NCBI GenBank assembly: GCA_023487035.1
Contig: JAMDEN010000014.1
Location: 683-64,682 of the forward strand
DNA length: 64,000 bases
Direction: 5' to 3'
Origin: Actinomycetota bacterium
GTDB taxonomy: Bacteria > Actinomycetota > Humimicrobiia > Humimicrobiales > Humimicrobiaceae
This document shows positions 14,975 to 46,684 of this stretch, piece after piece. The position numbers and the translations under genes were made by a program. Positions within the stretch are counted from its first letter, which is position 1, and each line of letters starts with the position of its first letter. Under the pieces are notes generated by a model. That model was not told where the DNA came from and did no database searches. It saw only the letters and a program-made list of their open reading frames with translations.

Positions 14975-14976
14975 TT

Positions 14977-30569: not shown

Positions 30570-32519
30570 TTATTCTACAGTAACACTTTTTGCCAGGTTT
30601 CTAGGCTGATCAACATTTCTCCCCAAGTTCTTTGCAATATAATATGCCAGTAATTGCAGCGGGATAATTGTTAAAATACCATACAGCTCCTCAATTGTAG
30701 AAGGAATATAAAAAACATAATTTGAATATTTCTGTATTTCGTCATCTCCCTCTGTTGCAATAGTTAAAATAGTTGCATTTCTGGCCTTTACTTCTTCAAT
30801 ATTACTTAGCATTTTTTCATAAACAAAATCCTTCGGAACAATACCTACAACTGTAGTATTAGTATCAGTTAATGCTATCGGTCCATGTTTCATCTCGCCG
30901 CCAGCATATCCTTCAGCATGTATATATGAAATTTCTTTTAATTTTAAAGCTCCTTCCAGTGCAATCGGAAGACCGGATAATCTTCCTAAAAATAAAAAAG
31001 TTCTGTATTTATACAGATGGTCAGCTATCTTTTTAATTTTATCAGCATCATTTAATATTAACTGTATTTTATTTGGAATAAACTCAAGTTCTTCTATAAT
31101 TTTTGCATATTTTTCCTTATCAATATGGCCTGTTATTTTACCAAAATACAGAGCCATTAAATACATGACAATTATTTGGGCAGTAAAAGTTTTTGTAGCG
31201 CAAACACCAACTTCAGGACCTGCATGAGTATAAATAACAGAATCCGATTCTCTTGCTACAGTGCTTCCCACTACATTTGTAATTGCTACAATTTTTGCTC
31301 CTTTTGATTTGGCTTCTCTGATTGCAGCAAGCGTATCTATTGTTTCTCCTGATTGTGTTATGGCAATAAATAAACAATTTTTCTCAACTATTGGATCTTT
31401 ATATCTGTATTCTGAAGAAACTTCAACTTCAACAGGAATTCGTGCCCATCTCTCAATAAGCTGCTTGCCAAGTAAAGCAGCATGGGAAGAAGTTCCACAA
31501 GCAATAATTTGTATTTTATTTAAATTTTTTATCTGCTCCTCTGTCATATTTAATTCTTCAAACTGCAGATTCCCGTCAATTAGCCTTCCTCTCATTGTTT
31601 CTTTTATGCCGAAAGGTTGCTCAAATATCTCTTTTAGCATGAAATCTTCATATCCTGATTTTTCAGCACTTGTTATAGACCAGTTTACTTTAAATGGATC
31701 TCTCTGTATTAACTTGCCATCTATATCAAAAATTTCAATACTATCTTTTTTAAGTCGAATAGTTTCAAAATCATTAACAATAATAAAATTTCTTGTGTGC
31801 TCCAGTACCGCAGGCATGTCTGATGCAACAAAATTTCCGTCTTTTCCAATACCTATAATAAGAGGGCTTGCAATTCTTGCTGCTACTATCTCGTCCGGGA
31901 AATCTGAATTTAGCGCAACTATCGCTCCTGATCCTTTAATTCTTTTTATGAGTTTTTGCATTGCAAGAAGAAAATCGCCATCTTTATATTCTTCCAGAAG
32001 ATGTGGAAGAACTTCTGTATCTGTTTCTGAAATGAATTTATGCCCTTTTTGAATTAATTCTTCCTTAAGTTCTGCATAGTTTTCAATTATACCATTATGA
32101 ACTACCACTATTTTCCCGATGCAATCAGAGTGAGGATGTGCATTAATTTGAGTTGGTGCACCATGAGTTGCCCATCTCGTGTGGCCTATTCCAATATGAC
32201 TGTCAAAATTCTGACCCTGCAGTAATTCTTCCAGATCTTTTATTTTACCTGCCTGTTTTGCAGTCAAAATTTTAACTGCTGAACTATTTCCCGGTTCATT
32301 ACCAATTAATTCAATTAATTCATCTTTATTTTTATTATTATCTTTATTTTGATTTTTCTCTTTTTCTTTATCCTGTTGTTCTTTATCTATAACTTTTTCA
32401 TTTTGTATTAAAATTGCTATACCAGCAGAATCATATCCACGATATTCAAGCCTTTTAAGACCGTTAATTATAATATCTTTACAATATTTATCTCCAACAT
32501 ATGCAATAATTCCACACAT
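30570..32519 (-). CDS. glmS: glutamine--fructose-6-phosphate aminotransferase (isomerizing)
   Basis: 649 aa. N-terminal MCGIIAY Ntn-glutaminase. Two SIS domains. C-terminal ...NLAKSVTVE. About 25-aa K/N/D/E-rich low-complexity insertion after residue 44. Confidence 0.9.
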   Translation of the reverse strand: MCGIIAYVGDKYCKDIIINGLKRLEYRGYDSAGIAILIQNEKVIDKEQQDKEKEKNQNKDNNKNKDELIELIGNEPGNSSAVKILTAKQAGKIKDLEELLQGQNFDSHIGIGHTRWATHGAPTQINAHPHSDCIGKIVVVHNGIIENYAELKEELIQKGHKFISETDTEVLPHLLEEYKDGDFLLAMQKLIKRIKGSGAIVALNSDFPDEIVAARIASPLIIGIGKDGNFVASDMPAVLEHTRNFIIVNDFETIRLKKDSIEIFDIDGKLIQRDPFKVNWSITSAEKSGYEDFMLKEIFEQPFGIKETMRGRLIDGNLQFEELNMTEEQIKNLNKIQIIACGTSSHAALLGKQLIERWARIPVEVEVSSEYRYKDPIVEKNCLFIAITQSGETIDTLAAIREAKSKGAKIVAITNVVGSTVARESDSVIYTHAGPEVGVCATKTFTAQIIVMYLMALYFGKITGHIDKEKYAKIIEELEFIPNKIQLILNDADKIKKIADHLYKYRTFLFLGRLSGLPIALEGALKLKEISYIHAEGYAGGEMKHGPIALTDTNTTVVGIVPKDFVYEKMLSNIEEVKARNATILTIATEGDDEIQKYSNYVFYIPSTIEELYGILTIIPLQLLAYYIAKNLGRNVDQPRNLAKSVTVE

Positions 32520-32792: not shown

Positions 32793-33623
32793 TTAATCTT
32801 TTATTAAGATTCCAGAAGTAGTAGAATTTGCGGGGATATTACCTATTTCATTAAAAGCTTGAGTTCTTTTCAAATCTGTAACTAACTTAATTCTATCAGC
32901 TCTATGAAGAGCTACGTAATATTCAATAGGAATATTACCTGTTAAATAGCTCACACTTTCAATAAATAATAATGGCGAACCTTTTTTTATATTTAATAAT
33001 TTTGCTTCTTCATCTTTTGCAATTGTTGCTTCAATAAATTTTCTTCCCCTGTCAATTTTCAAATTATATTTTCCCTCTATGAAACTATATAAAGATTTGT
33101 TAGTTAAATCTTCTTTTAAAAGATCAGGACATAATTTAAATGGTAAATATGTTCTATCTAATACTATAGGCTCATCATTTAATTTTCTTAATCTATAAAT
33201 AGCAATAACATCCTCATCTAATTTTAGATTTAGATTCTCTCCTATCTTTTTTGTAGGTTTAATTTTTTCCTGATATAAAACATCATTTTTTACATTATAG
33301 CCACGAGCCGTCATGTCTTCAAAAAAGCCTCTTAAACTTTGAACTAAATTTTCACTTATTTTTGGCTCAGCAACAAAAGTGCCTTTGGCTTTTTTCTTTA
33401 CAAGATAACCTTCATTTACAAGTTCCTGATAAGCTTGCCTTGTAACGGTTCGACTTATATCAAACAATTCACAAATTTTAATCTCAGGGATTACTTGCTG
33501 GCCCGGTTTCCAATGCCCTGATTCAATTTCCTCGATAATATGTTGCTTCAGTTGAAAATAATAGGGAATTCTGCTATTTTTATCAATTTTAAAATTGCTA
33601 TATAATTCAACATTATCTTTCAT
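32793..33623 (-). CDS. GntR-family (HutC/UTRA subfamily) transcriptional regulator
   Basis: 276 aa. N-terminal wHTH (ISRTVTRQAYQELVNEGYLVKKKAKGTFVA). C-terminal UTRA-like effector domain. Confidence 0.8.
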   Translation of the reverse strand: MKDNVELYSNFKIDKNSRIPYYFQLKQHIIEEIESGHWKPGQQVIPEIKICELFDISRTVTRQAYQELVNEGYLVKKKAKGTFVAEPKISENLVQSLRGFFEDMTARGYNVKNDVLYQEKIKPTKKIGENLNLKLDEDVIAIYRLRKLNDEPIVLDRTYLPFKLCPDLLKEDLTNKSLYSFIEGKYNLKIDRGRKFIEATIAKDEEAKLLNIKKGSPLLFIESVSYLTGNIPIEYYVALHRADRIKLVTDLKRTQAFNEIGNIPANSTTSGILIKD

Positions 33624-33736
33624 AATTAATAAATAAATTAAAATTTTTAATATTATTATTAAAATAATACCATTCTTAATACTGATTTATATATTATACT
33701 CATATAATAATTACAATGCCATCAGATTTTAAAAAT

Positions 33737-35071
33737 CTAAATTCCTGTTATTTGTATATCAAAAACTTTTGATATAATGTTTTCTATTTCAACTAATCTT
33801 TTACCTTCAACAATACAATTATGATGAGAATAAAAAGCATTCATCAATTTATAACCATTTGCAACCTTAACAAGTGCGCCATTTCTACAATCAGTCCCAG
33901 GGTATTGGACATATCTTTCAATAATGCCTTCAACTGCCATAAGTTTTGTTAAAGTTGGATCTAGCTTTGTAAGAGTTATATCTCCTTCAGGCATCCTTGC
34001 ATCAATAGCAGTTGCATTATCATCAACAATAGCAAGTACTTTTGGTTTTAATACCCATGAAGAACAAAATGATTGTGGAACGACACCAAAATACCCGCAA
34101 TGAACAATAAGACTATAATTTTGAGGATCTTTTACTTCAGGAAATTTATCTATTTTTTCATGTTTTAGTGCTGCAAGTCCCATTAAGAATGGATAAATAT
34201 TACTCATCATTGCTGGAGCATCTAAAGATTTATTGATAATATAATTGGTAAGTAAAGAACTTATATCAGCTTCACAAGCCCACATTATTTTCTTTTCTTC
34301 ATACAGCAAATTCCATGCAAGACAAGGGGTTGTATCTGAATAAAAAGATTCATTTAGGCAATTTATTCCGACTCCTTTTATCTCAGAATCTTTTCCAATT
34401 TCTTCTTTTACAGCTATATAAATTTTTATTGCACTGTTCAATGCTCTCTCAGAAACATCTTCAATTTTTATATTCAAATTTTTCAAAATTTTTCTTGCTT
34501 CACTATCAGGAATCTCTTTTGCTTTACTACCTAATTCTTTAAAACTCTTTTTTATTAAGGATATACCAAATTTGTCTTTCACTCGATTTATATATTGGTC
34601 TTCCCACCAATAAAATCTTTTAAATATTTCCGCCTGCATTCCACCAGTCCCAGGATTATCTTGAAATACCAAAAACTTTGTTTTTTCCATTTCTTTTTTT
34701 AATGCAAGACTTTTACAAATTTTTTTTGTAAGTTCTGAATTATATGGTGCAAAAACTTTTATACCTTCTGACTGCATAAATGCAACAATTTCCCAATCCC
34801 ACATATTAACAGTTCCAAAATCAGAAGTGGCTATAATAATAGGAACTTTTATTTTTTTTATCTCATTTATTTGTTTAAAAGCATCACCAAGCAACTGAGG
34901 AAAAATTACCGCATCTACATCTGGGATATTTTTTCCAATAGGGATGGAGTCTTGTATTTCGGCATAATCTACTAAAAGATTTCTTAAATTTTGTAATTGT
35001 TTTTCAAAATCTTCATCTTTGCCTGATTTAAAATATAAAGGAATGAGCTTTGCTTTCATAAATTTCTCCAA
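33737..35071 (-). CDS. putative sugar isomerase (L-arabinose/L-fucose isomerase-like fold)
   Basis: 444 aa. Weak resemblance to AraA/FucI family central and C-terminal regions (acidic and His residues in WACEADISS, IVHCGYFG, FYSHHNC). Assignment tentative. Confidence 0.3.
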   Translation of the reverse strand: MEKFMKAKLIPLYFKSGKDEDFEKQLQNLRNLLVDYAEIQDSIPIGKNIPDVDAVIFPQLLGDAFKQINEIKKIKVPIIIATSDFGTVNMWDWEIVAFMQSEGIKVFAPYNSELTKKICKSLALKKEMEKTKFLVFQDNPGTGGMQAEIFKRFYWWEDQYINRVKDKFGISLIKKSFKELGSKAKEIPDSEARKILKNLNIKIEDVSERALNSAIKIYIAVKEEIGKDSEIKGVGINCLNESFYSDTTPCLAWNLLYEEKKIMWACEADISSLLTNYIINKSLDAPAMMSNIYPFLMGLAALKHEKIDKFPEVKDPQNYSLIVHCGYFGVVPQSFCSSWVLKPKVLAIVDDNATAIDARMPEGDITLTKLDPTLTKLMAVEGIIERYVQYPGTDCRNGALVKVANGYKLMNAFYSHHNCIVEGKRLVEIENIISKVFDIQITGI

Positions 35072-35179
35072 TTTTAATTTTACAAAAATAAATAAACAAA
35101 CTACCTTATAATTTATTATAATAATAAATTATTTTTCTTTATCAATCTATATTAAACTTTAGTAATTTCTAATTAATTT

Positions 35180-36040
35180 TTATCTTAAGTTGTTTGCTAT
35201 ATTTTTTAAAGCTTCTACACTTTTAGCAACAGCTGCATCCTCATCATTATTATAATCAGGGTGAAGATAATCGATCTCAACAGCTAAAAATCCTTCATAT
35301 CCAGCATCTTTTAGTAATTGAGCAAGTTTTTGATTATCTACTAAACCATCTCCAACTGGTGTACATGCAAAGAAATGCCAGCTACTTACAGGTTGTCCTT
35401 TTTGAGGCTTTAAATCTTTAACATGGGTTGCAAAAGTATATTTTGCTAATTTCTCCATACCTTCTATTGGATCTGCAAGTACACGCATAAAATTACCTGT
35501 GTCAAAATTAATGCCAAAGTTAGGTGAGTTTACATTATTTATAATTTGCAGCATTTCATCAGGGTTAAAATCTATATGGTTTTCATCAGCCAATTTAATT
35601 CCATATTTTTCTGCAACTTTTACTGCTTCTGAAAACATCTCTGATAGCTTTTCAATTTGAGGAGTATGAGGTTCAAATCTAAACATAAGGCTGCTTCCGA
35701 CTACTCGCATAACTCTTGCCCCAATTGTTTTAGCATGCTCAATATGTTCAATCATTTCTTCATAAGCTTTTTTATTTTTTCCACCTTCTAATCCATCTGG
35801 ATGACCCCAAGCATAAACTCTATCTAAATTATACTCATCTAACATTCCCTTAATTTCACTCAAATATGAATCATCATATCCGGGTATAAAACAAGATTCC
35901 AAAGATACTCCATCTGCTTTAAGCTCATATGCTCTTTTAATAAAGTCTTCTAATGTCATGCTTTTTGAAGGTTTTTCTTGATCATCATAAACTTCCCCAA
36001 AAAATCTATGATAACAGTAACTGTCAATTCCAACTTTCAT
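35180..36040 (-). CDS. sugar phosphate isomerase/epimerase (xylose-isomerase-like TIM barrel)
   Basis: 286 aa. Pattern typical of AP-endonuclease-2/TIM-barrel family (MKVGIDSY..., ...HxKD..., E...H metal ligands). Confidence 0.55.
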   Translation of the reverse strand: MKVGIDSYCYHRFFGEVYDDQEKPSKSMTLEDFIKRAYELKADGVSLESCFIPGYDDSYLSEIKGMLDEYNLDRVYAWGHPDGLEGGKNKKAYEEMIEHIEHAKTIGARVMRVVGSSLMFRFEPHTPQIEKLSEMFSEAVKVAEKYGIKLADENHIDFNPDEMLQIINNVNSPNFGINFDTGNFMRVLADPIEGMEKLAKYTFATHVKDLKPQKGQPVSSWHFFACTPVGDGLVDNQKLAQLLKDAGYEGFLAVEIDYLHPDYNNDEDAAVAKSVEALKNIANNLR

Positions 36041-36161
36041 AACACCCTCCTTAAAATATTAATATTTTTAAAACTTTAATTTTAAGTAATTTTTAATTAT
36101 TAATATACTTTAAATTTTCAACAATTCTATAAAATTTTATATTGATGTTTAAATAAACAAC

Positions 36162-37367
36162 TTACTCAAATACACAAAACTCTTTCTTACCAGTTTCTGA
36201 TGATTTTATGATTGCATCACTTACAACAGCATTTCTATAACCATCTTCAAAAGTGGCAATATATGGTTCAACAGGCTTATTATTAATTACAGCTTCAGTC
36301 ATATTATAAACAATATGAACAAATGTATTTTCCCAACCAATTATATGTCCATGTGGCCACCATCTATCATAATACGGATGATAAGACTCAGTAACATTCA
36401 CACAATGAAAACCTTGAGTTTCAATAAGTGATTCATTTCTCCAGAAAACCCATAAATTGTTCATATTCTCAAGGTCCCACCAAATACTTCCATTTTCAGC
36501 ATTTATTTCAATCGTATTATAATTTTTTCTTCCAGCACAAAATCTCGATGCTTCAATAGTACCAATTGCACCATTCTCAAATTCAAGAACTGATGCTATT
36601 GCGTCGTCTACTTCTACTTTTTCTTTACTTTTAGTTTGTTCATTGTATCTTTCTTTAATAAATGTCACACTTGTTGCCATAACTGCCTTTATTTCCCCAC
36701 ATAAAAATCTGCCAAGATCAATTATGTGTGAGCCTAAATCACCTAGAGCGCCACTACCACTTTCACTTTTTTTCAACTTCCATATCATTGGAAAATTAGG
36801 ATCCATTATCCATTCTTGAAGATATCTTGCTCTAAAATGATATATTCTTCCCAGTTTTCCATCCATTATTAAATTTTTTATTAAAACAATAGCTGGAACA
36901 GTCCTATAATTAAAACAACAAATATTTTTTACACCAGCTTTTTTTATAAAATCCCGCATCTCTTTAGCTTCTTTAGAATTTCTTGCAAGCGGCTTTTCAC
37001 AAATTATATTTTTCCCTGCTTTTGCCGCTTCAATTGATATTTCAGCATGAAGATAATTCGGAGTTCCTATATCAACTATTTGTATTTTCTCGTCATTTAT
37101 TACATCTTTCCAATTAGTAGTATATTTTTCATATCCATATCTTTTAGCTGATTCTTTTAAAGCTTCTTCATGAACTCCACAAATTGTAACAAGTTTTGGA
37201 ATTGCAGCTGGCGGCCAGAAAATATAAGGCATCTGTTTCCAAGCATTAGAATGAGCTTTACCCATAAAAGCTTGCCCAATCATACCAATACCAACTTCAG
37301 GTATATTTGCTTTAGCTTTTTCTTCGCTTGTCATAGCAACAAATCCAACTTTTCCCCCCTCTGCCAT
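36162..37367 (-). CDS. Gfo/Idh/MocA-family NAD(P)-dependent oxidoreductase
   Basis: 401 aa. N-terminal Rossmann (VGIGMIGQAFMGKAH), EKP motif (ICEKPLA) and C-terminal alpha/beta domain typical of the family. Confidence 0.7.
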   Translation of the reverse strand: MAEGGKVGFVAMTSEEKAKANIPEVGIGMIGQAFMGKAHSNAWKQMPYIFWPPAAIPKLVTICGVHEEALKESAKRYGYEKYTTNWKDVINDEKIQIVDIGTPNYLHAEISIEAAKAGKNIICEKPLARNSKEAKEMRDFIKKAGVKNICCFNYRTVPAIVLIKNLIMDGKLGRIYHFRARYLQEWIMDPNFPMIWKLKKSESGSGALGDLGSHIIDLGRFLCGEIKAVMATSVTFIKERYNEQTKSKEKVEVDDAIASVLEFENGAIGTIEASRFCAGRKNYNTIEINAENGSIWWDLENMNNLWVFWRNESLIETQGFHCVNVTESYHPYYDRWWPHGHIIGWENTFVHIVYNMTEAVINNKPVEPYIATFEDGYRNAVVSDAIIKSSETGKKEFCVFE

Positions 37368-37559
37368 ATTTTACCTCCATTTTTAATAAAAAGTTTTAAA
37401 CATATTTTTATTTATTTATTTTTTGTTTTCTTCTTTTTTCCCTTTTTTATATTTTTTAAATATATCTATAAAATTATTTATATTCTTTATTTAAATTCTA
37501 TTTCTATTTTAAGCTTTTAATATTTGCTTTTATTATTTTTTAGATATGATTAAAGTGTT

Positions 37560-38234
37560 TTAACTGTTTCTAACTTTGCGAATTATTTCTAAAGCTTTTG
37601 CAGCATTAGTTTCAATTAACTTATAATTCTTTTCATTCATAGCTTTTTTACTAACAAGTTGCGATCCCATACCTATGCAAGCTACACCTGCTTTAAACCA
37701 ATTCTTTATATTTTCTTCATCTACAGAAACTCCACCTGTTGGCATTACTTTTGTTTTAGGACATGGTCCAAGCAAAGCTTCTACAAATTTAGGTCCTCCA
37801 ATAGTTGATCCTGGGAATATCTTTACAAGCTCAACCCCAAACTCTTCAGCTTTCAATATCTCATTTACTGTTGCTGCCCCTGGTATATATGGAATTCTTT
37901 TTAAATTACAAAGTCTTGCAATTTCTTCATTAAAATTTGGGCCCACGATAAAATTTGCCCCATAAGCTATAAATAATGCTGCTGTAGGTGCATCAATTAT
38001 TGTTCCTGCACCAATAATAAGTTCTGGGAAAACATCTGGAGCAATATTAATTAAGTAAGAAAATACTTCTAAAGCGCCTTCCCCTCTGTTTGTAAACTCA
38101 AGAACATGGCATCCTCCTTTTACTAGAGCATCAGATATTTTTTTTGCTTCTTCCTTGTCTTTATTATAAAAAAGTGGAATCATGCCATCTTTAAAAATAG
38201 TATTATAAACCGTTAACCTATCAAACCTTGCCAT
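37560..38234 (-). CDS. eda: 2-dehydro-3-deoxy-phosphogluconate / 4-hydroxy-2-oxoglutarate aldolase
   Basis: 224 aa. Aligns with Eda motifs: GGCHVLEFTNRG (GG.RVLEVTLRT), IGAGTII, catalytic-Lys region KIFPGS, PTGGVS, GMGSQLV. Confidence 0.8.
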   Translation of the reverse strand: MARFDRLTVYNTIFKDGMIPLFYNKDKEEAKKISDALVKGGCHVLEFTNRGEGALEVFSYLINIAPDVFPELIIGAGTIIDAPTAALFIAYGANFIVGPNFNEEIARLCNLKRIPYIPGAATVNEILKAEEFGVELVKIFPGSTIGGPKFVEALLGPCPKTKVMPTGGVSVDEENIKNWFKAGVACIGMGSQLVSKKAMNEKNYKLIETNAAKALEIIRKVRNS

Positions 38235-38270
38235 AAAATCACCTCATTAATTTAAATTTTTTAATTTATC

Positions 38271-39233
38271 TTATCTTATACTGTCAGCAATTCTTTTTAA
38301 TTTATCAAATAATTCATCAGTTAATGTTAAATGAAGAGCTTGAAATATTACCTGGGTCCAACCATGTATAAAATAAACCCATCCATCTTCTACTTTAACC
38401 CCTCTTGTTTCTTTTTGAGATTCTGCCTGATGTAAAAAGTCTAACTCTCCTCTATAATTAAATTCCCAAGCCCAGCCATTTTTTGGAAATAAACCATCAT
38501 TAGTAATAGGGGAACCTGGGATATCTTTGCCCATTCCGGTTGCATTTATTACTATGCTATATTCTGGAAGAGCGCCCATAATTTCATCATTTACTTTTGG
38601 ATCTTGATTGCATATATATTCAAACTTTATATCTGTCCCAACTTTTTCTACTATGGCTTTTAAATGATCTAACCTTGGTTGACTTCTGTTAACAACAGTA
38701 ATTTTTTTAGGCTTATCACCTTCATCTTTTTTATTTATAAGATGAAGTACGGTTGCAATACTTGAGCCACCAGCACCAAATATTAAAATTTCAGCATTAT
38801 TATTTTCAAAGTAATTCTTTTTTATAAAATAATCATAACTAGCTCCCGCTGTTATTGGATCCTTTGCGTGCCCTTCCAATCTGCCTTCATTTTTAGAAAT
38901 ACATGAAATTTCATCAAGTAATTTTGCGTATGGATCAAAATAATCAAACATATCTTTTGCAGCTGCATATAAATCCATTTTATGAGTTGTAACAAGAGCT
39001 CCATAACAATTTTCATCATATTTTATTTGTGCAACAGCTTTTCTATAATTTTCCGGTTCATCATGAATTTTTAAATCATATGGATAAATTTTTAAATCTG
39101 AATATCCTAAAGCATCCATCCATAATGGAAAAAGTTTCATTATTGAGGATTTTGTTGTAGTAACCCCAATAAAATAAAAGGATTTCCCTTCTTTTTTAAC
39201 AATATTGTATCTTTTAGCTTCGTCTTCTGCCAT
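38271..39233 (-). CDS. shikimate/quinate dehydrogenase-like (AroE-family) protein
   Basis: 320 aa. N-terminal FYFIGVTTTKSSIMKLFP resembles the AroE substrate-domain start. ILIFGAGGSSIATVLHL NAD(P)-binding Rossmann. Tentative. Confidence 0.4.
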   Translation of the reverse strand: MAEDEAKRYNIVKKEGKSFYFIGVTTTKSSIMKLFPLWMDALGYSDLKIYPYDLKIHDEPENYRKAVAQIKYDENCYGALVTTHKMDLYAAAKDMFDYFDPYAKLLDEISCISKNEGRLEGHAKDPITAGASYDYFIKKNYFENNNAEILIFGAGGSSIATVLHLINKKDEGDKPKKITVVNRSQPRLDHLKAIVEKVGTDIKFEYICNQDPKVNDEIMGALPEYSIVINATGMGKDIPGSPITNDGLFPKNGWAWEFNYRGELDFLHQAESQKETRGVKVEDGWVYFIHGWTQVIFQALHLTLTDELFDKLKRIADSIR

Positions 39234-39421
39234 TTTTTCTTCCTTCCTATAAATTTCTTTAATTCCAAATTATATTTATAATTAATCCTCAAATTTCATA
39301 ATTATTTAATATCAATAATATTTATTAATAGCTTTATATTAACTTAAATATCTTTATGCTTACCTTTTTATAGAATTATTAAATTTAAAACTTTTTAAAT
39401 TTTTCAATAAAAAATAAATAA

Positions 39422-40402
39422 TTATGGTTCAATTACTGCAAATTTTGGTTTCTCACCTTTTAAAACTGCAAGACAATCTGAAATAGAAATTCTTGTCATC
39501 TCATTAGATGCATTATCAGTAGCCGCACCCATATGAGGTGTTGCTATTACTTGTTTTAAAGATAATAATTTATTATCGCTGTCTGGCGGTTCTTTTTTAA
39601 ATGTATCCAGTGCAACAGCTCTAACTTTCCCGTTTACCAAACTTTCATATAACGCATCTTCATCTATAAGTTCTCCCCGTGAAGTATTAATAAGTATTAC
39701 TCCATCTTTCATTTTTTCTATATTCTCTTTATTAATTATATTTGAAGTTTTGGCAGTAACTGGGATATGAAGAGAAATAAAATCAGAATTTTTAAAAAGA
39801 TCATCAATCTCTGCATACTCTATGTTGTATTTTGAAGCAAATTCTTTATCAAAATAAATATCATATGCTAATATTTTCATTTCAAATAATGATAACCTTT
39901 TTGCAAGTTCTTTTCCTATGTTACCAAATCCAATTATTCCAAAAGTTTTATCACATAAAGAAATTCCAGAAAGTCTTGGCCAAGATCCTGTTTTAGTTTG
40001 AGTATCTGCAATAATAATATTTCTAGCAGCAGCTATAGCTAAACCTATTGTTAATTCTGCTACAGACACTGAATTAACACCTGGAGTATTTGTAACATAT
40101 ATTCCAGCTTTTTTTGCTGCTTCTAAATCAACTCTGTCAACTCCAGCGCCATATCTTGCTATAACTTTTAAATTTTTTGCATTTTCTATAACTTTACCAG
40201 TAATTTCATCAAGACCAGCAATCATTCCATCAAATTTTTCAATTATTGGTAATAAATCTGCCTCTTTTAGTGGTTTACCAGTAGTATTATAAACTACTTC
40301 ACCGACCATTTTTTCAAGATCCTTTGCTAAGTCTTTATTGTATTTTGCAAAGCTTGTGGGAGTAACAAGAATTTTACAATCCTTTAAGTCTTTAATCGTC
40401 AT
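39422..40402 (-). CDS. D-isomer-specific 2-hydroxyacid dehydrogenase (PGDH/GyaR-like)
   Basis: 326 aa. NAD-binding GIIGFGNIGKELAKRL. Catalytic-domain pattern (INTSRG...D, ..TPHMGAAT). Confidence 0.75.
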   Translation of the reverse strand: MTIKDLKDCKILVTPTSFAKYNKDLAKDLEKMVGEVVYNTTGKPLKEADLLPIIEKFDGMIAGLDEITGKVIENAKNLKVIARYGAGVDRVDLEAAKKAGIYVTNTPGVNSVSVAELTIGLAIAAARNIIIADTQTKTGSWPRLSGISLCDKTFGIIGFGNIGKELAKRLSLFEMKILAYDIYFDKEFASKYNIEYAEIDDLFKNSDFISLHIPVTAKTSNIINKENIEKMKDGVILINTSRGELIDEDALYESLVNGKVRAVALDTFKKEPPDSDNKLLSLKQVIATPHMGAATDNASNEMTRISISDCLAVLKGEKPKFAVIEP

Positions 40403-40472
40403 TATGTTTTATCCCTCTTCTAATTTCTTCTTAAAAATATTCTTAAAAATATCCATATTTATTTAATTAATT

Positions 40473-41057
40473 TTATTTCCACTTTGGATTATCAATTATT
40501 TCTGGTTTGCCATTTTCTTCTATTACTAACTTTCTGAAGCCTTTAGTTTCTATTGTCGCATAATCATGCCCTGCATTTGCAGGATATGCAAATATAGTAA
40601 CTAAGTCCTCATCACTTTTAATATTAATTGAACGATGTGCCCATCTACCCGGAACATACAAAACAGTGTTTGGAAGTAATTCTTCTGCAGCCCAATCCCC
40701 TTCAGGATTTTCCATCATCATATAGCCATGGCCTTTTACACAATAATAAAATTCTGCAGTATCAAGAATTTGGTGAAAATGTCCTTTTGTCATAAAATAT
40801 TCATTACCAACCTTCCCAGGATGAACTATTGACATCCCTTGTAAGAGCTCTCCTTCAACCTCTGGAGCAAATTTTTCATAAACTTCATATAAAATACAAT
40901 CTTCTTTTTTAATCATTTCCTCATATGCTTTTTCATCCATGTATTGCCCCTTCATAGAAGACAGCTTTCTAATAATATGATTATCTGGATTTGATATCTC
41001 TTCATTTTTTATATCTACCTTATAGGTAAAAGGTTTGAAATTTTTATTATCACGCAT
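40473..41057 (-). CDS. pgiA: cupin-type glucose-6-phosphate isomerase (archaeal-type cPGI)
   Basis: 194 aa. Strong similarity along the full length to Thermococcales cPGI, as recalled from memory (HPGKVGNEYFMTKGHFH; YVPGRWAHRSINI; AGHDYATIETKGFRKLVIEENGKPEIIDNPKWK). Confidence 0.85.
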   Translation of the reverse strand: MRDNKNFKPFTYKVDIKNEEISNPDNHIIRKLSSMKGQYMDEKAYEEMIKKEDCILYEVYEKFAPEVEGELLQGMSIVHPGKVGNEYFMTKGHFHQILDTAEFYYCVKGHGYMMMENPEGDWAAEELLPNTVLYVPGRWAHRSINIKSDEDLVTIFAYPANAGHDYATIETKGFRKLVIEENGKPEIIDNPKWK

Positions 41058-41248
41058 TTATTATCCTTTCAGTTTTTTTATAATTTAATTTTTTGTAATT
41101 TATAAATTTTCTTATTTTACTAAACAAATATTTTTTCTTTTCTTTTTCTTTTTAAACTATTTTTTTACTGTTTTCTATTTTTTTATTAATTCTATTTTTT
41201 AATAAAACTTGGATATAAAAAATTTTAAAATAACTGCGCCTTGTTTAA

Positions 41249-42235
41249 TTAGTATTTACTTATACTAAAAAAATTTGCTGCATTTTCTCCAATTATCTTA
41301 TTAATTGCTTTTAATTTTAAATTTTTAGCTAATGCAGTATTTCTTATATCATTAAAAAATCCAAAATAACCTTTATTTGATATAAACTTTTTCCACATCT
41401 CATTATCAGCAATATCTGTTCCAATCATAACAGAGCTTTTAAAGCCTTCTTCTACCATTTTCTCAATCAACGGCCAAACATTTATAGAAGGATTATATTT
41501 TTCTCTCAAAAAAGTATCATATTCTAAGAAAAAACCTTCTTTTGCTAAATTTTTATGTAAATTAAAATCATTTCTTTTATCCATATGACATAAGACAACC
41601 CTACTTGGGTTTATTTTTTTAGATTCAATATAATTTATAAAATATTCAATATTTAAACCTTGCTCAGTATGCACTAAAATAGGAAGCTTGGTTTCAATAG
41701 AAGCATAAATGGCAGCATCAGTTAATATCTTTAATTGATTATCTTCTAAATTTCCAACAAAAGGTATCTTAATAACTCCAGCTTTTACTTTAATATTATC
41801 AGTAAGAGTTTCTTTTAAGCCCTGCGTATATTCGTTTATAAAGAAAGCTTGAGCTTCTTTTAAACTCATGCTCCATATTTTTGAATTAGGCGGGTAATAT
41901 TGCCTTTTATGAAATCCTGTAACAGAAATAATATTTACTCCTGTCTTTAACGAAAACTCATATAATTTATTGCCATCTCTTCCGCATTCATAAGGGGTAC
42001 AATCAACTAATGAACCATTAAGTTTTGTTTTAAAATCAGTTAATTCGTCTAAAATCAAAGAAAAATCATTTACTTCTGAAATAAAATTATTTAATTCATC
42101 CTCATATTTTTTTATCCAAATATGAGTATGGCAATCTATAACATTAAAAAAAGTATTTTCTATCAAACCTCTTACGGTTTGTATAAATTTTTCTTTTTTA
42201 TTTCCATTATTATTTAAATTTTTATTCTTTATCAT
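41249..42235 (-). CDS. phosphotriesterase-family (COG1735) binuclear-metal hydrolase, probable sugar(-phosphate) lactonase
   Basis: 328 aa. HxH (IDCHTHIW), carbamylated-Lys position (IKVKAGVIKI), His in VHTEQG and LCHMDKR, Asp in IGTDIA. This is the PTE/PHP metal-ligand constellation. Confidence 0.55.
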   Translation of the reverse strand: MIKNKNLNNNGNKKEKFIQTVRGLIENTFFNVIDCHTHIWIKKYEDELNNFISEVNDFSLILDELTDFKTKLNGSLVDCTPYECGRDGNKLYEFSLKTGVNIISVTGFHKRQYYPPNSKIWSMSLKEAQAFFINEYTQGLKETLTDNIKVKAGVIKIPFVGNLEDNQLKILTDAAIYASIETKLPILVHTEQGLNIEYFINYIESKKINPSRVVLCHMDKRNDFNLHKNLAKEGFFLEYDTFLREKYNPSINVWPLIEKMVEEGFKSSVMIGTDIADNEMWKKFISNKGYFGFFNDIRNTALAKNLKLKAINKIIGENAANFFSISKY

Positions 42236-42350
42236 TTTACGAAATCTTATTTTATTCTTCTTAACTAAATATTATTTAAATAATTTTAAAAATCATAAAA
42301 ATAAAATTTAAATCAAACTTTTTAGCTTTAAATATAAATAAAATCAGATT

Positions 42351-43940
42351 TTAAGGTAAATTCTTTAATTTTTTAAAAATTAAATTAGTATCCTGTAAAA
42401 GTTCTTCATAAAAACTTGAATATTTTTTATATAAATCAACAATTTGCTCTTGAGGTTCTAATATATAATTTATTTCATTAAATTTATTAGCTGTATTTTT
42501 TAAATCAGTAAATATCCCTGTGGCAAACCCAGCAAGTATTGCTGAGCCTAAAACCCCAAATTCTTCTCTTTTTAATTTAACATAAGGTAAATTTAAAACA
42601 TTTGCTTTTAATTGATTCCAAAATTTACTTTTGCTGCCTCCGCCTATAACTCTTGCTTCTTTTACTTTTAAGTCTGTTATTAAAGATTTTTCAACTTTTA
42701 AATAAATAAGATATTCATAAGCTATTGATTCTAGAATAGACCTATATAAATGTTCTTTTTTATGACGCCAAGTAAGACCTACCCAACTTCCTTTTAAATT
42801 AGGATCGTTTGGACAAACTCTTCCTCCTAAATGAGGAATAAAGAATAATTTTTCAGAACCAGCTGAAATTTTTGATGCAAGATTATCAAATATTTCATAT
42901 TCTTTTCCATTGAATAATTCTTGCATGATATAAATATTATTAATATCCTTAATATCTGGATTCTTAATTATTTCATCTCTAAACCATCTTATATCCAATC
43001 CCCCTCCGTTAATATAAGCAATTGCATACCATAAATCTTCAAGAACTGTTCTAGCAGTTAATAAAGTCTTATTTTTAACATCAGGGACATATTTATCAAC
43101 ACAAATTGAAAAAACTGAAGCAGTTCCAGCAACATCAAAAATCATTCCTGAATCATTAATGGCAGCTCCAAGAATGTTTGCCGCTTGATCTCCGCACCCT
43201 GCAGCTATAGGTGTTCCTTCTAATAATCCTGTAATGTTTGCAGTTTCTTTATTTACCTTACCAATAATTTCCCAAGGCTTTATAATTTTTGGCAGTTTAT
43301 TTGCTGGTAAATTAAATTCATTACATAAATCTTCAGACCATTTATTATTTAAAATATCAGCAAAACATGAAAAATGAATATAAGTATAATCAATAAAAGC
43401 TTCATCACTTTTTAATCCAGCCATTTCACCAGCAACATATGCAGAAGGCATGATAAATTTTGAAATCTTTCTAAAAATATCAGGTCTTTCATTCTTCCAC
43501 CACAACATTTTAGGACCATGAGAAAAAGTTGGAGGCCCACCTGATAGTGAGATTACTTTATCTTTTACTGAATTTAATATAGTTATATAGTCCGAACACC
43601 TTGTATCTAACCAAGAATCATACGGAATAACTGGTTGCCAATTATTATCTACCGCACATATACCTGCCATTTGCCCATCAATAGAAATACCAAAAATATC
43701 TTTTGGACTAATTAAATTTGATGATTGTGCTCTTTGTAGGCAATCTTTTATTGTATCAATTACAGAATAATAAATTTCATTCATATCTTGCTCAACAGCA
43801 CCAGGTTCTGGATAATAAAGTTTTGATTCTTGAAAAGATTCAGAAATAAGATCTCCATCATCATTAAAAATTGCGGTTTTTGTCCCACTTGTTCCAATAT
43901 CTATTCCGATAAGGTATTTATTACTTCTCATTAACTGCAT
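42351..43940 (-). CDS. FGGY-family carbohydrate kinase
   Basis: 529 aa. N-terminal YLIGIDIGTSGTKTAIF and C-terminal actin-fold ATPase motifs (GGGSKSKFWNQL). Confidence 0.75.
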   Translation of the reverse strand: MQLMRSNKYLIGIDIGTSGTKTAIFNDDGDLISESFQESKLYYPEPGAVEQDMNEIYYSVIDTIKDCLQRAQSSNLISPKDIFGISIDGQMAGICAVDNNWQPVIPYDSWLDTRCSDYITILNSVKDKVISLSGGPPTFSHGPKMLWWKNERPDIFRKISKFIMPSAYVAGEMAGLKSDEAFIDYTYIHFSCFADILNNKWSEDLCNEFNLPANKLPKIIKPWEIIGKVNKETANITGLLEGTPIAAGCGDQAANILGAAINDSGMIFDVAGTASVFSICVDKYVPDVKNKTLLTARTVLEDLWYAIAYINGGGLDIRWFRDEIIKNPDIKDINNIYIMQELFNGKEYEIFDNLASKISAGSEKLFFIPHLGGRVCPNDPNLKGSWVGLTWRHKKEHLYRSILESIAYEYLIYLKVEKSLITDLKVKEARVIGGGSKSKFWNQLKANVLNLPYVKLKREEFGVLGSAILAGFATGIFTDLKNTANKFNEINYILEPQEQIVDLYKKYSSFYEELLQDTNLIFKKLKNLP

Positions 43941-44147
43941 TCCTTTATAATTTAATATTTAATTCCCTTTACATCAAAATATTTGTTTTATTTAAAAGTA
44001 AAAATATTTTTAAAAAATTAAAGAATTTTAAAAAATTAATTTAAAATATTAAAATCAAAAAAATTTATAAAAAACAAAATTAAAAAATTAAATTAATATA
44101 ATAATATAATAATTAATTATTATGATAATTTATTAAGCATTAATAAT

Positions 44148-45227
44148 TTAAACATTAAACATTACTTTTAAAACATTTTCTAATTTTGCATTTTTAAATG
44201 CTTCTTCTGCTTCCGATAATGAATACCTTATACTAATTAACTTTTTTAAATCTATTTTCTTTGCAGCAATAAGCTCTACTGACTTCCTATATTGCAAGAT
44301 ACTTTGCCCAGTAGTTCCTGTAACAATTATATGTTTATAATGAATAATATTAGATTTAAAATTAATAATATCCTGACCTTTAGGAAGGCCGCCAAAAAAC
44401 AATATCCTACCCTGTATCGCAACAAGATCTAAGCTATCTTCCTGGGCTTTTTTTGAAGGAGCTGTGATAATTATGACATCCGCTCCTCTGCCATAACTAT
44501 TAGCCAAAATAAATTCTTTCAAATTTTCATTTTGTGGATTAATTACTAAATCAGCACCAAATTTTAAAGCTTGCTCGCTTCTTATTTTACTAATTTCACT
44601 AACTATTATTTTTTGTGCACCTCTTAATTTTGCCATCATTACATGCAAAATTCCCATAGGACCTGCACCCATTATTAAAACAATATCTTTTGGCCCAATT
44701 TCAACAGCTTCTGAAGCACAAAATACTGTAGACAAGGGTTCAGCTAGTGATGCTTCTTCAAAAGAAACATTGTCTTGTAATAAATAAATATTTCCTTGTC
44801 GAATATATTCTTCTGGAATAACCATATATTCAGCAAAAGATCCATTTAAATTAATTCCTATTGCGGAATAATCTTCACAATAATTACTTTGGCCAGATAC
44901 ACATTGATCACATACCCCACACCCTATATTTGGCGCCATTGACAATCTCATTCCAACTTTAAATTGTTTGATATTTGAGCCAACTTCAGCTATTTCACCA
45001 GCAACTTCATGTCCTAAAATTATTTTTTTATCAAGTGGATTTTTAAAATGGCCAAATTCTTTAATTTTTAAATCTGTTGCACAAATTGATGTAGTTTTTA
45101 CTTTTAATAATATTTCATCAGATTTAATTTTCGGAATTGGGATATCTTCAACTTTAATTAAACCTTTACCTTGGTATACTACTGCTAACATAAAACTCCT
45201 ATTAATATTATTTTTTATCTTTAACAT
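44148..45227 (-). CDS. zinc-dependent medium-chain alcohol/polyol dehydrogenase (sorbitol/threonine-DH-like)
   Basis: 359 aa. Catalytic Zn GHEVAGEI. Structural Zn CGVCDQCVSGQSNYC. Rossmann GAGPMG. Confidence 0.8.
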   Translation of the reverse strand: MLKIKNNINRSFMLAVVYQGKGLIKVEDIPIPKIKSDEILLKVKTTSICATDLKIKEFGHFKNPLDKKIILGHEVAGEIAEVGSNIKQFKVGMRLSMAPNIGCGVCDQCVSGQSNYCEDYSAIGINLNGSFAEYMVIPEEYIRQGNIYLLQDNVSFEEASLAEPLSTVFCASEAVEIGPKDIVLIMGAGPMGILHVMMAKLRGAQKIIVSEISKIRSEQALKFGADLVINPQNENLKEFILANSYGRGADVIIITAPSKKAQEDSLDLVAIQGRILFFGGLPKGQDIINFKSNIIHYKHIIVTGTTGQSILQYRKSVELIAAKKIDLKKLISIRYSLSEAEEAFKNAKLENVLKVMFNV

Positions 45228-45232
45228 TTTTT

Positions 45233-46252
45233 TTATAAATTTACTGGCATTCCCTTCTTTATAGATTCATTTGCTGCAATTACTGCCTTTACAGCATGTT
45301 TTCCATCTTTACCAGTCACAATTGGGGTTTTATTATCTAATATACATTCAATAAAGTGTCTATCTTCAGCTATATAGGCTTCATGAAATCTTTTTTTCCA
45401 ACTTAAAACTTGTGGAGAGACACATCCTTTATTTCTTGTGCAAGTAATTGTGGTATGTTCCTTTAAATAACCTATAAAGATAACACCCTTAGTTCCAACA
45501 ATTTCAACTCTTGCATCATAGCCATAATCACAAGGACAAACACTATCAATTACTCCAAAAACTTCGTTATTTAATGTTGCTAATACTGTGGCATTATCAT
45601 AAAAATCAGGATACTCTTTACCTATTTCAGGATTTTTTGAATTTTTTGCTACTGAATAAATTACTTTATAATCAGATTCAGCTAGCCATCTTATAGAATC
45701 AAAATCATGACTATTTACCTCTGCTAACGTTCCATTACTATTTTTAATATCATAAGCCCATTTCCCGGGAAGACCTGGCCCTCTCCCAACTGATTTTATA
45801 ATTAAAGGTTGTCCTATTTCTCCTTCCATAAGCAACTGTTTGCCATTTTTAAATCCATCATCAAAACGTCTCATAAAACCTATTTGTAAAATAACATTTG
45901 CTTTTTTACAAGCTTCAATCATCTTATCGCAGTCTTCCAATGTTATACACATTGGTTTTTCACAAAAAACATGTTTTTTGTTTGCAGCAGCTATCTCTGT
46001 GTATTGACGATGAGTAAATGTTGGTGTAGTTATGACAATAGCATCAAAATCAACATTTTTTATTGCATCATCAAAATTTGTAAATGCTCTTGTTTTATCA
46101 AGATTAAATTTAGAAGCTAAATTTTTTGCTTTTGTTAAATCTGTATCAAATACTGATACTATTTCTGCGTCAGGTATAGAAAATTTATAAACATCTCCAT
46201 GAACTTCACCGGCTCTTCCAGCACCAACAAGACATATTTTTACCTTTTCCAT
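45233..46252 (-). CDS. Gfo/Idh/MocA-family oxidoreductase
   Basis: 339 aa. VKICLVGAGRAGEVH Rossmann and CEKPM motif. Confidence 0.75.
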   Translation of the reverse strand: MEKVKICLVGAGRAGEVHGDVYKFSIPDAEIVSVFDTDLTKAKNLASKFNLDKTRAFTNFDDAIKNVDFDAIVITTPTFTHRQYTEIAAANKKHVFCEKPMCITLEDCDKMIEACKKANVILQIGFMRRFDDGFKNGKQLLMEGEIGQPLIIKSVGRGPGLPGKWAYDIKNSNGTLAEVNSHDFDSIRWLAESDYKVIYSVAKNSKNPEIGKEYPDFYDNATVLATLNNEVFGVIDSVCPCDYGYDARVEIVGTKGVIFIGYLKEHTTITCTRNKGCVSPQVLSWKKRFHEAYIAEDRHFIECILDNKTPIVTGKDGKHAVKAVIAANESIKKGMPVNL

Positions 46253-46684
46253 AAACCTACCCTTTGTAAAATTTTTATATAATTTAAATAAAAATAATTT
46301 TATTATTTATTCGTTAATTGGTTTATTTAAACTTAATATTTCATGAATATAAAAAATACTTAATTGATTAATGTTGTAATTACAATATTAATAATGTTAT
46401 TTATTTTTCTTTTTTTTGTCAAATTATTTAACTATTTTTTTATTTTTTCTATTTATATCAAATTTATAATTATTAAAGAATATGAAGATATTTTTAGTTG
46501 AATATAAGAATGATAATAAATTATTAATACTCTTAAAAATATTTTTAGCCAGCATTGACGTTGGAACTGCTATGGAAGCATCTAAGAGATTTGAGTAAAA
46601 TTAATTAAATTTTTAGTATTATTGTTTAAAAGAGAAGGTGCTTTTGATAAAACATGGTGAATTAAATAGATTTTTATTTAAACA

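Follow-up and report, generated by a model that had tools for sequence, protein, structure and literature searches.

In the Entner-Doudoroff (ED) pathways, which include the classical and semi-phosphorylative forms (Zwf, Pgl, Edd, and Eda), the sulfo-ED pathway, and the De Ley-Doudoroff pathway, a sugar is oxidized at C1 to a lactone, the lactone is opened by a lactonase, and a 2-keto-3-deoxy acid is finally cleaved by an aldolase of the family PF01081. The known routes that lead to KDPG (2-keto-3-deoxy-6-phosphogluconate) from L-glucose, L-galactose, and inositol all include a dehydratase (e.g., PMC12632266). In our study, we analyzed a stretch of 64,000 nucleotides (hereafter, the window) from an Actinomycetota bacterium of the Humimicrobiaceae (GenBank assembly GCA_023487035.1, contig JAMDEN010000014.1, positions 683 to 64,682 of the forward strand). 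The minus strand of the window was found to contain, at 32793-46252, an array of twelve genes that shares the logic of the ED pathways. Two sugar-catabolic modules are fused in the array, G01-G08 forming module A and G09-G11 module B; a single regulator (G12) accompanies them, and there is no transporter. As the best overall explanation we tentatively propose, at somewhat less than an even chance, that the two fused modules form a GntR-controlled, dehydratase-free, ED-like route acting on 3-deoxy sugars. The presence of a conserved, GntR-controlled, two-module phosphorylative-oxidative ED-like route without a dehydratase is much more secure than the identity of its substrate.

The twelve open reading frames (ORFs) called on the window were intact and co-directional, and L001 and L002, which are metagenome assemblies of this sequence made independently, yielded the same genes. 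The genes are numbered in the order of transcription, with G01 first and G12 last, and many of them are separated by spacers of 100-200 bp. An earlier note on this DNA had described the array as an island of eleven enzymes and a GntR/UTRA regulator. The families it named were borne out by Pfam and NCBIfam scans, and in the case of G11 by the fold; in place of the four dehydrogenases that it listed, we counted five NAD(P) oxidoreductases (G01, G02, G06, G07, and G09). The word island, in the sense of horizontal transfer, was dropped for want of a compositional signal: the GC content (27-30%) and the GC skew of the array were the same as those of the flanks, and the flanks are of housekeeping type, containing glmS, two exporter-type ABC genes, glmM, and ribosomal protein genes. 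The window as a whole has about 28% G+C, which is unusually AT-rich for Actinomycetota; the public labels of its proteins are Actinomycetota (Humimicrobiaceae-like).

The conservation of the array was studied in 80 loci of Actinomycetota and Chloroflexota, which were fetched from species-representative genomes through an alignment of homologues of the PTE-family hydrolase (G04). All twelve window proteins were mapped onto these loci, and all ORFs of the loci were clustered. All eight genes of module A were present in 46 of the 80 loci. The genes of the PTE-family hydrolase, the cupin-type phosphoglucose isomerase (PGI), the 2-hydroxyacid dehydrogenase, and the AroE-like dehydrogenase occurred together in 62 of the 80 loci, and in 41 of the 47 full-length ones. 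Homologues scattered in related genomes would have refuted the reading of the earlier note; they were found to be clustered, and the recurrence of the clustering in several phyla places it far outside what chance would give. Few of the carriers were Actinomycetota (43-87% identity); many were Chloroflexota (28-70% identity), for the most part Anaerolineae and their relatives. In Anaerolineaceae, the genes G11-G09-G10 were found to be divergent from a GntR gene and an operon with the order G03-G01-G02-G04-G05-G06-G08-G07.

The two modules were found to be separable. The nearest Actinomycetota relatives (L004-L006) contained G01-G08 only, without G09-G11, beside a CUT2 ABC transporter, an SDR gene, and a GntR gene. 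In the metagenome-assembled genome (MAG) of L006, another contig (L091) contained G11, G09, a TIM barrel, an FGGY kinase, a second GntR gene, and a second CUT2 ABC system. Modules A and B thus lie on separate contigs of one MAG, each with its own GntR and CUT2 genes, which argues that the array of the window is a fusion; the single linear eleven-enzyme pathway proposed in the earlier note gives way to two modules. Three loci of Chloroflexota (L011, L043, and L057) kept the kinase, the PTE-family hydrolase, the cupin PGI, the 2-hydroxyacid dehydrogenase, and the AroE-like enzyme without G01 and G02. The core therefore consists of the kinase, the isomerase, the AroE-like dehydrogenase, the lactonase, the phosphoglycerate dehydrogenase (PGDH)-like dehydrogenase, and the aldolase; G01, G02, and module B are upstream accessories to it. 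A ROK gene was present in 23 of the 80 loci. A second conserved module was observed downstream of the core in Anaerolineaceae (L054, 14273-20611, and about 25 other Anaerolineae loci). It contained a deoC-equivalog aldolase, a xylulokinase-like FGGY kinase, a TIM barrel, a second Zn-dependent alcohol dehydrogenase, a glyoxalase-fold protein, and an OYE flavoenzyme; of these, the deoC and FGGY pair was also present in S. meliloti (L087, 15624-17922).

A version of the module was also found in alphaproteobacteria. The search of a plasmid collection with G07 gave 15 matches, which came from Rhizobium, Sinorhizobium, Shinella, Marinovum, Paraburkholderia, and Lichenicola and were 41-52% identical to it. 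Five alphaproteobacterial plasmid loci were opened, and all five contained the cupin PGI, the AroE-like, and the PGDH-like genes, with the KDPG-type aldolase present in four. A metallo-hydrolase of the MBL fold stood in place of the PTE-family enzyme in all five loci, none of which contained a PTE homologue, and this hydrolase matched the model of UlaG (L-ascorbate-6-phosphate lactonase) weakly. That an unrelated MBL-fold hydrolase takes the place of the PTE-family enzyme while the rest of the module is kept speaks well, if indirectly, for the hydrolysis of a (phospho)lactone at this step, and the lactonase role suggested for the PTE-family enzyme in the earlier note gains support from it. The regulator of the alphaproteobacterial loci was of the HexR-like RpiR type (283.6 bits); in Pseudomonas, KDPG is sensed by HexR. 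The loci also contained genes of an ABC importer, of FGGY kinases (one or two), and of polyol dehydrogenases, the last in varying sets. The Shinella locus (L090) contained two sugar phosphate isomerase/epimerase genes of the TIM-barrel type, and the other four loci were without G09-G11. Some clusters had no copy of the aldolase gene, e.g., that of R. leguminosarum (L086). The locus of S. meliloti Ak57 (L087, CP090106.1) lies on a record of 3.72 Mb labelled 'plasmid pSymB'. No near match to its sugar module was found on the other Sinorhizobium records of the plasmid collection, including other pSymB records; it may be that the replicon is mislabelled or that the locus is peculiar to this strain.

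The Pfam scan of the window's long ORFs gave no protein of the Edd/IlvD, enolase-superfamily, or UxaA/UxuA type, and no dehydratase family was found among the gene clusters common to at least 5 of the 80 related loci. The 6-phosphogluconate dehydratase (Edd) of the classical ED pathway is thus missing from the window and from the shared neighbour clusters, and the earlier statement that no dehydratase is visible holds for the window as well as for the related loci. The companion statement that no transporter is visible holds for the window, where no importer was found among the Pfam-scanned ORFs; the two ABC genes at 46685-50421 encode exporter-type proteins with fused transmembrane and nucleotide-binding domains. 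In the relatives, however, a CUT2 ABC transporter belongs to the system: its components were linked to the module in 22 or more loci, among them those of the closest relatives within Actinomycetota. The binding proteins of two of these transporters gave generic, ribose-binding-protein-like matches among PDB sequences, which suggests a solute of monosaccharide size and allows no further inference on the ligand.

Module A begins with two dehydrogenases. G01 (45233-46252, minus strand, as for all genes of the array) encodes a Gfo/Idh/MocA oxidoreductase of 339 amino acids with both the N- and the C-terminal GFO_IDH_MocA domains of Pfam. It resembles inositol dehydrogenase IolG and scored 271.8 bits against the myo-inositol 2-dehydrogenase model (TIGR04380, iolG), below the cut-off of 355. 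The top PDB sequence match was 3ezy, annotated merely as 'Dehydrogenase', followed by inositol dehydrogenases. A homologue was present in 66 of the 80 loci, and G01 is proposed to be an upper-pathway dehydrogenase of the module. G02 (44148-45227; called start 45191) encodes a Zn-dependent medium-chain dehydrogenase of 347-359 amino acids (Pfam ADH_N and ADH_zinc_N) that is similar to threonine and sorbitol dehydrogenases. The NCBIfam scores were 231 bits for tdh, 201.5 for IolM (cut-off 450), and 129 for L-idonate 5-dehydrogenase, each below its cut-off, and the PDB sequence matches were threonine 3-dehydrogenase (183 bits) and sorbitol dehydrogenase (123 bits). Its homologue was found in 62 loci. 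G03 (42351-43940; alternative start 43931) encodes an FGGY carbohydrate kinase of 526-529 amino acids (FGGY_N and FGGY_C), with scores under the cut-offs for XylB (260.7 bits) and the FGGY-type gluconokinase (228.6 bits). The orthologue of G03 was present in 61 loci, and elsewhere a second type of FGGY kinase adjoined the PTE gene.

G04 (41249-42235) encodes a binuclear metallohydrolase of 328 amino acids that belongs to the PTE family (PF02126) of the amidohydrolase superfamily, with a score of 105.3 bits against a cut-off of 22.4. The six positions of the binuclear-metal ligands (H36, H38, K156, H189, H217, and D274) were invariant across 26 homologues. The nearest characterized relatives were the phospho-furanose lactonase model NF045706, to which G04 scored 86.2 bits (cut-off 630), and PDB 3msr (71 bits). 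G04 is a putative phospho-sugar lactonase, and its close association with an FGGY kinase agrees with a lactone substrate that is phosphorylated. G05 (40473-41057) encodes a phosphohexose isomerase of 194 amino acids and is a member of the cupin-type phosphoglucose isomerase family (GPI, PF06560; 113.8 bits, cut-off 20.7). It matched the glucose-6-phosphate isomerase chains 1x7n and 4luk, which are archaeal cupin PGIs, with 198 bits across residues 8-194, i.e., the full length. Homologues of G05 were found in 72 loci, with an identity of 53-87% across phyla.

The next two genes encode the oxidoreductases of the core. The product of G06 (39422-40402; 326 amino acids) is a D-isomer-specific 2-hydroxyacid dehydrogenase of the PGDH-like type without an ACT domain (2-Hacid_dh_C, 201.6 bits). 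Its NCBIfam scores were 300.6 bits for PGDH (cut-off 454) and 235 bits for glyoxylate reductase; the homologue was present in 70 loci, and G06 is proposed to oxidize the C2 hydroxyl group of a phospho-aldonate. G07 (38271-39233; 320 amino acids) is a divergent oxidoreductase of the shikimate dehydrogenase family. It is not an AroE equivalog, as its score to TIGR00507 (aroE) was 44.1 bits against a cut-off of 200.2. The AlphaFold2 (AF2) model of G07 (pLDDT 89.5) has a shikimate dehydrogenase-like fold, and the top fold match was the 5-ketofructose reductase of Gluconobacter (7cok, E 9.8e-17), followed by shikimate and quinate dehydrogenases. The TTHK motif (K85), D125, and the GAGGS loop were invariant, with the Lys/Asp dyad mapped by inspection. 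G07 was the best-conserved gene of the cluster, with an identity of 52-82% in the loci of Actinomycetota and Chloroflexota and 41-52% in alphaproteobacteria, and the clade to which it belongs stands apart and is very large, with 8,000 clusters or more. G07 is proposed to be a sugar-ring dehydrogenase. G08 (37560-38234) encodes a class I aldolase of the KDPG/2-keto-4-hydroxyglutarate (KHG) type with 224 amino acids (PF01081, 147.8 bits). It scored 289.3 bits against the KHG/KDPG equivalog model NF005499, above the cut-off of 275, so that the KDPG aldolase call made from the letters of the window was confirmed; the homologue was present in 60 loci.

The first gene of module B, G09 (36162-37367), encodes a Gfo/Idh/MocA oxidoreductase of 401 amino acids that is similar to levoglucosan dehydrogenase. 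It scored 389.8 bits against the levoglucosan dehydrogenase model NF052479 (LevoglcsnDh), below the cut-off of 650, and its top PDB match was 6a3f (314 bits). Its orthologue in L091 (73% identity) adjoins the homologue of G11. G10 (35180-36040) encodes a xylose isomerase-like TIM barrel of 286 amino acids (AP_endonuc_2, 117.6 bits), with weak matches to the models of L-ribulose-5-phosphate 3-epimerase, IolE, and IolO. The top PDB match was 3tva, a structure of no known function, and G10 could be an isomerase, an epimerase, an eliminase, or a dehydratase. Homologues of G10 (58-66% identity) adjoined the G09 homologue in 27 loci. G11 (33737-35071; called start 35059) encodes a protein of 440-444 amino acids that had been called FucI/AraA-like; the call stands at the level of the fold, and in sequence searches of Pfam and the PDB no match was found. 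An alignment of 34 homologues was built, and the AF2 model (pLDDT 87) was found by Foldseek to match L-arabinose isomerase (4f2d, E 4.5e-19, TM 0.70) and L-fucose isomerases (E about 1e-11). E241, E267, D269, H324, H416, and H417 were invariant in the alignment and may include counterparts of the Glu/Glu/His/His ligands of Mn in AraA. G11 is proposed to be an aldose-ketose isomerase of free sugars. The family of G11 contained more than 3,700 homologue clusters at E<=1e-5, named 'hypothetical protein'. The best 120 homologues were 59-75% identical across Actinomycetota, Spirochaetes, Atribacteria, and Deltaproteobacteria. In other phyla, the homologues stand alone beside a MocA dehydrogenase or a CUT2 ABC transporter (L084, L092, and L093). 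The search of the plasmid collection with G11 gave no match.

The last gene, G12 (32793-33623), encodes a repressor of 276 amino acids with the GntR/HutC architecture, i.e., a GntR domain (46.6 bits) followed by a UTRA effector domain (138.7 bits). Its orthologues (38-53% identity) were found beside the cluster in 40 of the 80 loci. Upstream of G01, the minus strand at 46374-46422 contained a promoter-like site and a candidate palindromic operator. TTGACA (46422-46417) and TAACAT (46399-46394), with a spacer of 17 nucleotides, make up the region's strongest minus-strand match of the sigma-70-like type, and the perfect palindrome TTGTAATTACAA is present downstream of them at 46374-46385, as a 12-mer that is unique in the window. 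The layout TTGACA...TGT(A/C)ATTACA was kept upstream of the G01 homologue in the related Actinomycetota loci L003-L006. Two copies of the palindrome were also found near the GntR gene of the module B locus L091, and L006 had one copy upstream of its GntR gene. The palindrome TGTAATTACA is a phylogenetic footprint of a candidate operator of the GntR/HutC type, and its presence at both modules argues that the two belong to one regulon. No second copy of the operator above chance was found inside the cluster, and Rfam gave no riboswitch or ribozyme in the cluster or beside it. The co-regulation on which the earlier account depended is thus favoured by the conserved promoter and candidate operator before G01 and by the conserved unit, in so far as sequence can speak for it.

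The following route is proposed. G12 would probably repress a single transcription unit through the candidate operator, which would overlap the one strong promoter upstream of G01. A ketose would be phosphorylated to the ketose-6-phosphate by the kinase G03, followed by its isomerization to the aldose-6-phosphate by the cupin isomerase G05. The AroE-like G07 would oxidize the aldose-6-phosphate with NAD(P)+ to the aldonolactone-6-phosphate, which the lactonase G04 would open to the 6-phospho-aldonate. G06 would then oxidize C2 to give the 2-keto acid, and G08 would cleave this acid to pyruvate and glyceraldehyde-3-phosphate. Upstream of this chain, G01 and G02 may convert the polyol, the aldose, and the ketose into one another. 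Module B, with its C3-type sugar dehydrogenase, TIM-barrel enzyme, and AraA-fold isomerase, may feed a related free sugar to the same kinase, and uptake is presumably carried out by a CUT2 ABC system encoded elsewhere in the genome. This order was the sole one found in which each core enzyme is used once and nothing is added; both the order and the substrate are inferred. A pyruvate-forming class I aldolase requires a 2-keto-3-deoxy-4-hydroxy acid. The core offers one isomerization, two oxidations, and one lactone hydrolysis, so that KDPG would be reached only if C3 is already without a hydroxyl group, and the substrate would accordingly belong to the 3-deoxy-hexoses, -hexuloses, or -hexitols. 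Our best guess within this class is 3-deoxyfructose or compounds derived from 3-deoxyglucosone.

Several observations are consistent with such a route. The loss of the aldolase gene from some clusters is expected if the product is ordinary KDPG, which the housekeeping Eda can cleave. The HexR-like regulator of the alphaproteobacterial loci agrees with a route through KDPG as well. The match of G07 to 5-ketofructose reductase provides a precedent for an AroE-family enzyme that acts on a sugar in the pyranose form. Beside the module, Anaerolineae and S. meliloti contain a deoC-equivalog aldolase that has an FGGY kinase of its own, of the xylulokinase-like type, and genes of glycerol dehydrogenase, aldo/keto reductase, glyoxalase-fold, and OYE proteins accompany the module in Anaerolineae and alphaproteobacteria; these are circumstantial signs of deoxy-sugar and of dicarbonyl/acetol chemistry. 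It is possible, yet doubtful, that module A serves specifically to break down 3-deoxy-hexoses and -hexuloses, i.e., dicarbonyl-derived sugars of the 3-deoxyglucosone/3-deoxyfructose type, by a pathway in which an AroE-family enzyme serves as the sugar-phosphate 1-dehydrogenase and a PGDH-like enzyme installs the 2-keto group. Such a pathway would be common among Chloroflexota that are anaerobic and Actinomycetota that branch deeply, and would occur in some rhizobia.

A number of points weigh against the proposed route. Except for G08, all scores to characterized equivalogs were below the cut-offs, and the specificities proposed here are therefore tentative. The 198-bit match of G05 to glucose-6-phosphate isomerase chains suggests that plain glucose-6-phosphate or fructose-6-phosphate may be the substrate. 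G01 and G02 are similar to IolG and IolM, which act in inositol metabolism, and the AP_endonuc_2 family of G10 includes a genuine dehydratase, IolE, which makes a cryptic dehydration conceivable. A simpler route from 3-deoxyglucosone to 2-keto-3-deoxygluconate (KDG) exists, by oxidation of the aldehyde, and 3-deoxy-hexoses are not known to occur in the amounts that a module present in thousands of metagenomic contigs would call for. The window is without an importer and has one copy of the operator for an array of 13.5 kb with spacers of 100-200 bp. Literature on the bacterial catabolism of 3-deoxy sugars was not found in open-access text, where the matches to '3-deoxygluconate' were parts of the name of KDG. 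Likewise, no paper on this module was found in open-access text under PTE/lactonase/FGGY clusters, the iol genes of T. maritima, bacterial cupin PGI, the rhizobial locus, or the catabolism of 3-deoxyglucosone and 3-deoxyfructose. This absence is no proof, and the module is apparently undescribed.

The requirement of the aldolase for a deoxygenated C3 could also be satisfied if an ordinary hexose, hexitol, or cyclitol were dehydrated by an unrecognized enzyme of the cluster, which we consider rather unlikely. The dehydration could be carried out by G10 on a keto-sugar (as by IolE on inosose), by the PTE or MBL-fold enzyme at the lactone stage, or by G11 through the diversion of an enediol intermediate, with several dehydrogenases creating and later reducing keto groups for a redox-assisted reaction. 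G10 matches IolE weakly and its family includes dehydratases and beta-eliminases, and TIM-barrel paralogues are present in the operon of the Caldilineae-type and Promineifilum-type loci. G09 is closest to levoglucosan dehydrogenase (6a3f), an enzyme that works together with TIM-barrel eliminases. The five oxidoreductases exceed the needs of a simple scheme. However, the minimal module, in L004-L006 and in four of the five alphaproteobacterial loci, keeps the aldolase without G09-G11, and module B of one MAG is placed on a different contig. We know of no PTE-family or MBL-fold enzyme that dehydrates a lactone, and the PGDH-like enzyme would be left without an obvious role. In another reading, C3 keeps its hydroxyl group and the substrate is a rare hexose, such as one of the psicose/allose or tagatose family. 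The steps would then run through the ketose-6-phosphate, the aldose-6-phosphate, the lactone, the 6-phospho-aldonate, and the 2-keto-6-phospho-aldonate, which the aldolase would split to hydroxypyruvate and glyceraldehyde-3-phosphate. The enzymes follow the order of the 3-deoxy route, with each core enzyme used once, the score of 235 bits relates G06 to glyoxylate/hydroxypyruvate reductases as well, and polyol dehydrogenases of the GolD/DthD type accompany the module in S. meliloti. This cleavage is nevertheless improbable: G08 exceeds the KDPG/KHG equivalog cut-off, all characterized PF01081 aldolases known to us use pyruvate as the donor, the cluster has neither a glycerate kinase nor a second hydroxypyruvate reductase, and the dispensability of the aldolase would be odd for a non-standard cleavage.

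An inositol or cyclitol pathway related to IolG and IolM of T. maritima, in which G01 and G02 would make a diketo-inositol, ring opening would fall to the PTE-family enzyme, and the resulting keto-aldonate would be converted by the other enzymes, is given an equally low probability. The best NCBIfam model of G01 is iolG, its PDB sequence matches were mostly inositol dehydrogenases, and G02 matches IolM. The combination of AP_endonuc_2, MocA, CUT2, and ROK/GntR genes is typical of iol clusters, and the Shinella locus contains a gene of the inositol monophosphatase family. Against this, all iol models scored below their cut-offs, and G02 scored higher to threonine dehydrogenase than to IolM. G01 and G02 are missing from the alphaproteobacterial minimal module and from L011, L043, and L057, and the phosphohexose isomerase and the phospho-lactonase have no place in the known inositol routes. 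Those inositol routes that end at KDPG still need the dehydratase UxaA; the analogous L-glucose route is described in PMC12632266. If unrelated sugar enzymes had come to lie side by side by chance, the cupin PGI and the aldolase being housekeeping genes, this could account for the spacers of 100-200 bp between many genes and for the window having no transporter; the idea is contradicted by the gene content, and largely the gene order, kept across Actinomycetota, Chloroflexota, and Alphaproteobacteria and by the conserved operator, and is extremely improbable. Other known types of route were considered and dropped. The ascorbate/ula-type routes need a decarboxylase, which is missing; for the tetronate and apiose routes, no DUF1537 or RLP is present; the KduI/KduD uronate routes do not agree with a cupin of the PGI type and the absence of a PfkB kinase; and the cleavage of 3-deoxy-D-manno-octulosonate (KDO) leaves four core enzymes unexplained.

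Other features were observed elsewhere in the window. A cobalamin riboswitch (Rfam RF00174, 90.7 bits) was present at 18878-19063 on the plus strand, upstream of an ORF of 175 amino acids (19276-19803), and is unrelated to the sugar cluster. A defence-type block at 8475-17352 (plus strand) contained an N6-methylase fused to specificity domains (type I restriction-modification-like, 1015 amino acids), an AAA_13 ATPase (788 amino acids), a RhuM/Fic protein (347 amino acids), and a ResIII/helicase restriction subunit (791 amino acids). The flanking glmS gene (30570-32519, minus strand) encodes a GlmS of 649 amino acids with a low-complexity insertion rich in Lys/Asn/Asp/Glu at about residues 45-80, after the N-terminal Cys; the NCBIfam models align from about residue 82 onward. 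No glmS ribozyme was found by Rfam in the 273-bp spacer upstream of the gene. A fusion protein of 1028 amino acids at 3391-6477 (minus strand) contained FAD_binding_4, a 4Fe-4S dicluster domain, and two CCG cysteine-rich domains, and may be a fused oxidoreductase of the glycolate/lactate type. An Ala_racemase_N protein of 351 amino acids (52106-53161, minus strand), located between glmM and the ribosomal protein genes, scored 288 bits to the ornithine racemase model (cut-off 480).

If the 3-deoxy route is true, it would be a new way to KDPG, in which a deoxy-sugar phosphate is oxidized rather than a sugar acid dehydrated. It would provide the first function for the AraA-fold family of G11, which has no Pfam entry, and for the 'shikimate dehydrogenase' family of G07, whose members are probably not shikimate dehydrogenases. 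It would also provide a physiological role for the PTE-family phospho-lactonases, which to our knowledge have so far been characterized only in vitro, and point to a carbon source of the abundant and poorly cultured Anaerolineae and Humimicrobiaceae-like Actinomycetota. Even with a wrong guess of the substrate, the invariant five-enzyme module, the non-orthologous exchange of the lactonase, and the conserved operator form a target for enzymology.

Compared with the ED pathways, the module is alike in its alphaproteobacterial version also in having a HexR-like regulator. Unlike them, it is without Edd/IlvD or any other recognized dehydratase, contains the AroE-like enzyme instead of Zwf and a PTE-family or MBL-fold enzyme instead of Pgl, and has an extra PGDH-like C2 dehydrogenase and a cupin isomerase as integral parts. 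Among the PTE-family phospho-sugar lactonases, 3msr and 3pnz are Mycoplasma MS53_0025 and Listeria Lmo2620, with pentono-1,4-lactone-5-phosphates as substrates. G04 shares the fold and the six metal-ligand positions with this group, whereas its scores are low (71-86 bits, cut-off 630) and its genomic context is different; by spacing, its bridging ligand would be Lys156, as in true PTEs, and not Glu. The 5-ketofructose reductase of Gluconobacter (7cok/7col), a member of the shikimate dehydrogenase family, is the best structural match of G07, and shows that the family can use sugars in the pyranose form. In contrast to the reductase, to which it is 17-19% identical, G07 is about 40 residues longer and falls in a separate clade; the oxidation of the anomeric carbon of a sugar phosphate proposed for it is without precedent.

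The iol pathways of T. maritima (IolG, IolM, IolN, and IolO) and Bacillus resemble the array in the upper pair of a MocA and a Zn-dependent alcohol dehydrogenase, in the AP_endonuc_2 protein, in the CUT2-type uptake, and in the ROK/GntR regulators. They differ from it in that the array has no equivalents of IolN, IolD, IolB, IolC, and IolJ, and in that its core occurs without G01 and G02 in other taxa. The levoglucosan/3-keto-glycoside pathway (LgdA, LgdB1, LgdB2, and LgdC) is similar to module B in that G09 and an AP_endonuc_2 barrel form a pair, like LgdA and LgdB. Unlike that pathway, module B contains one TIM barrel and no evident LgdC, and the constant partner in it is the AraA-fold protein G11.

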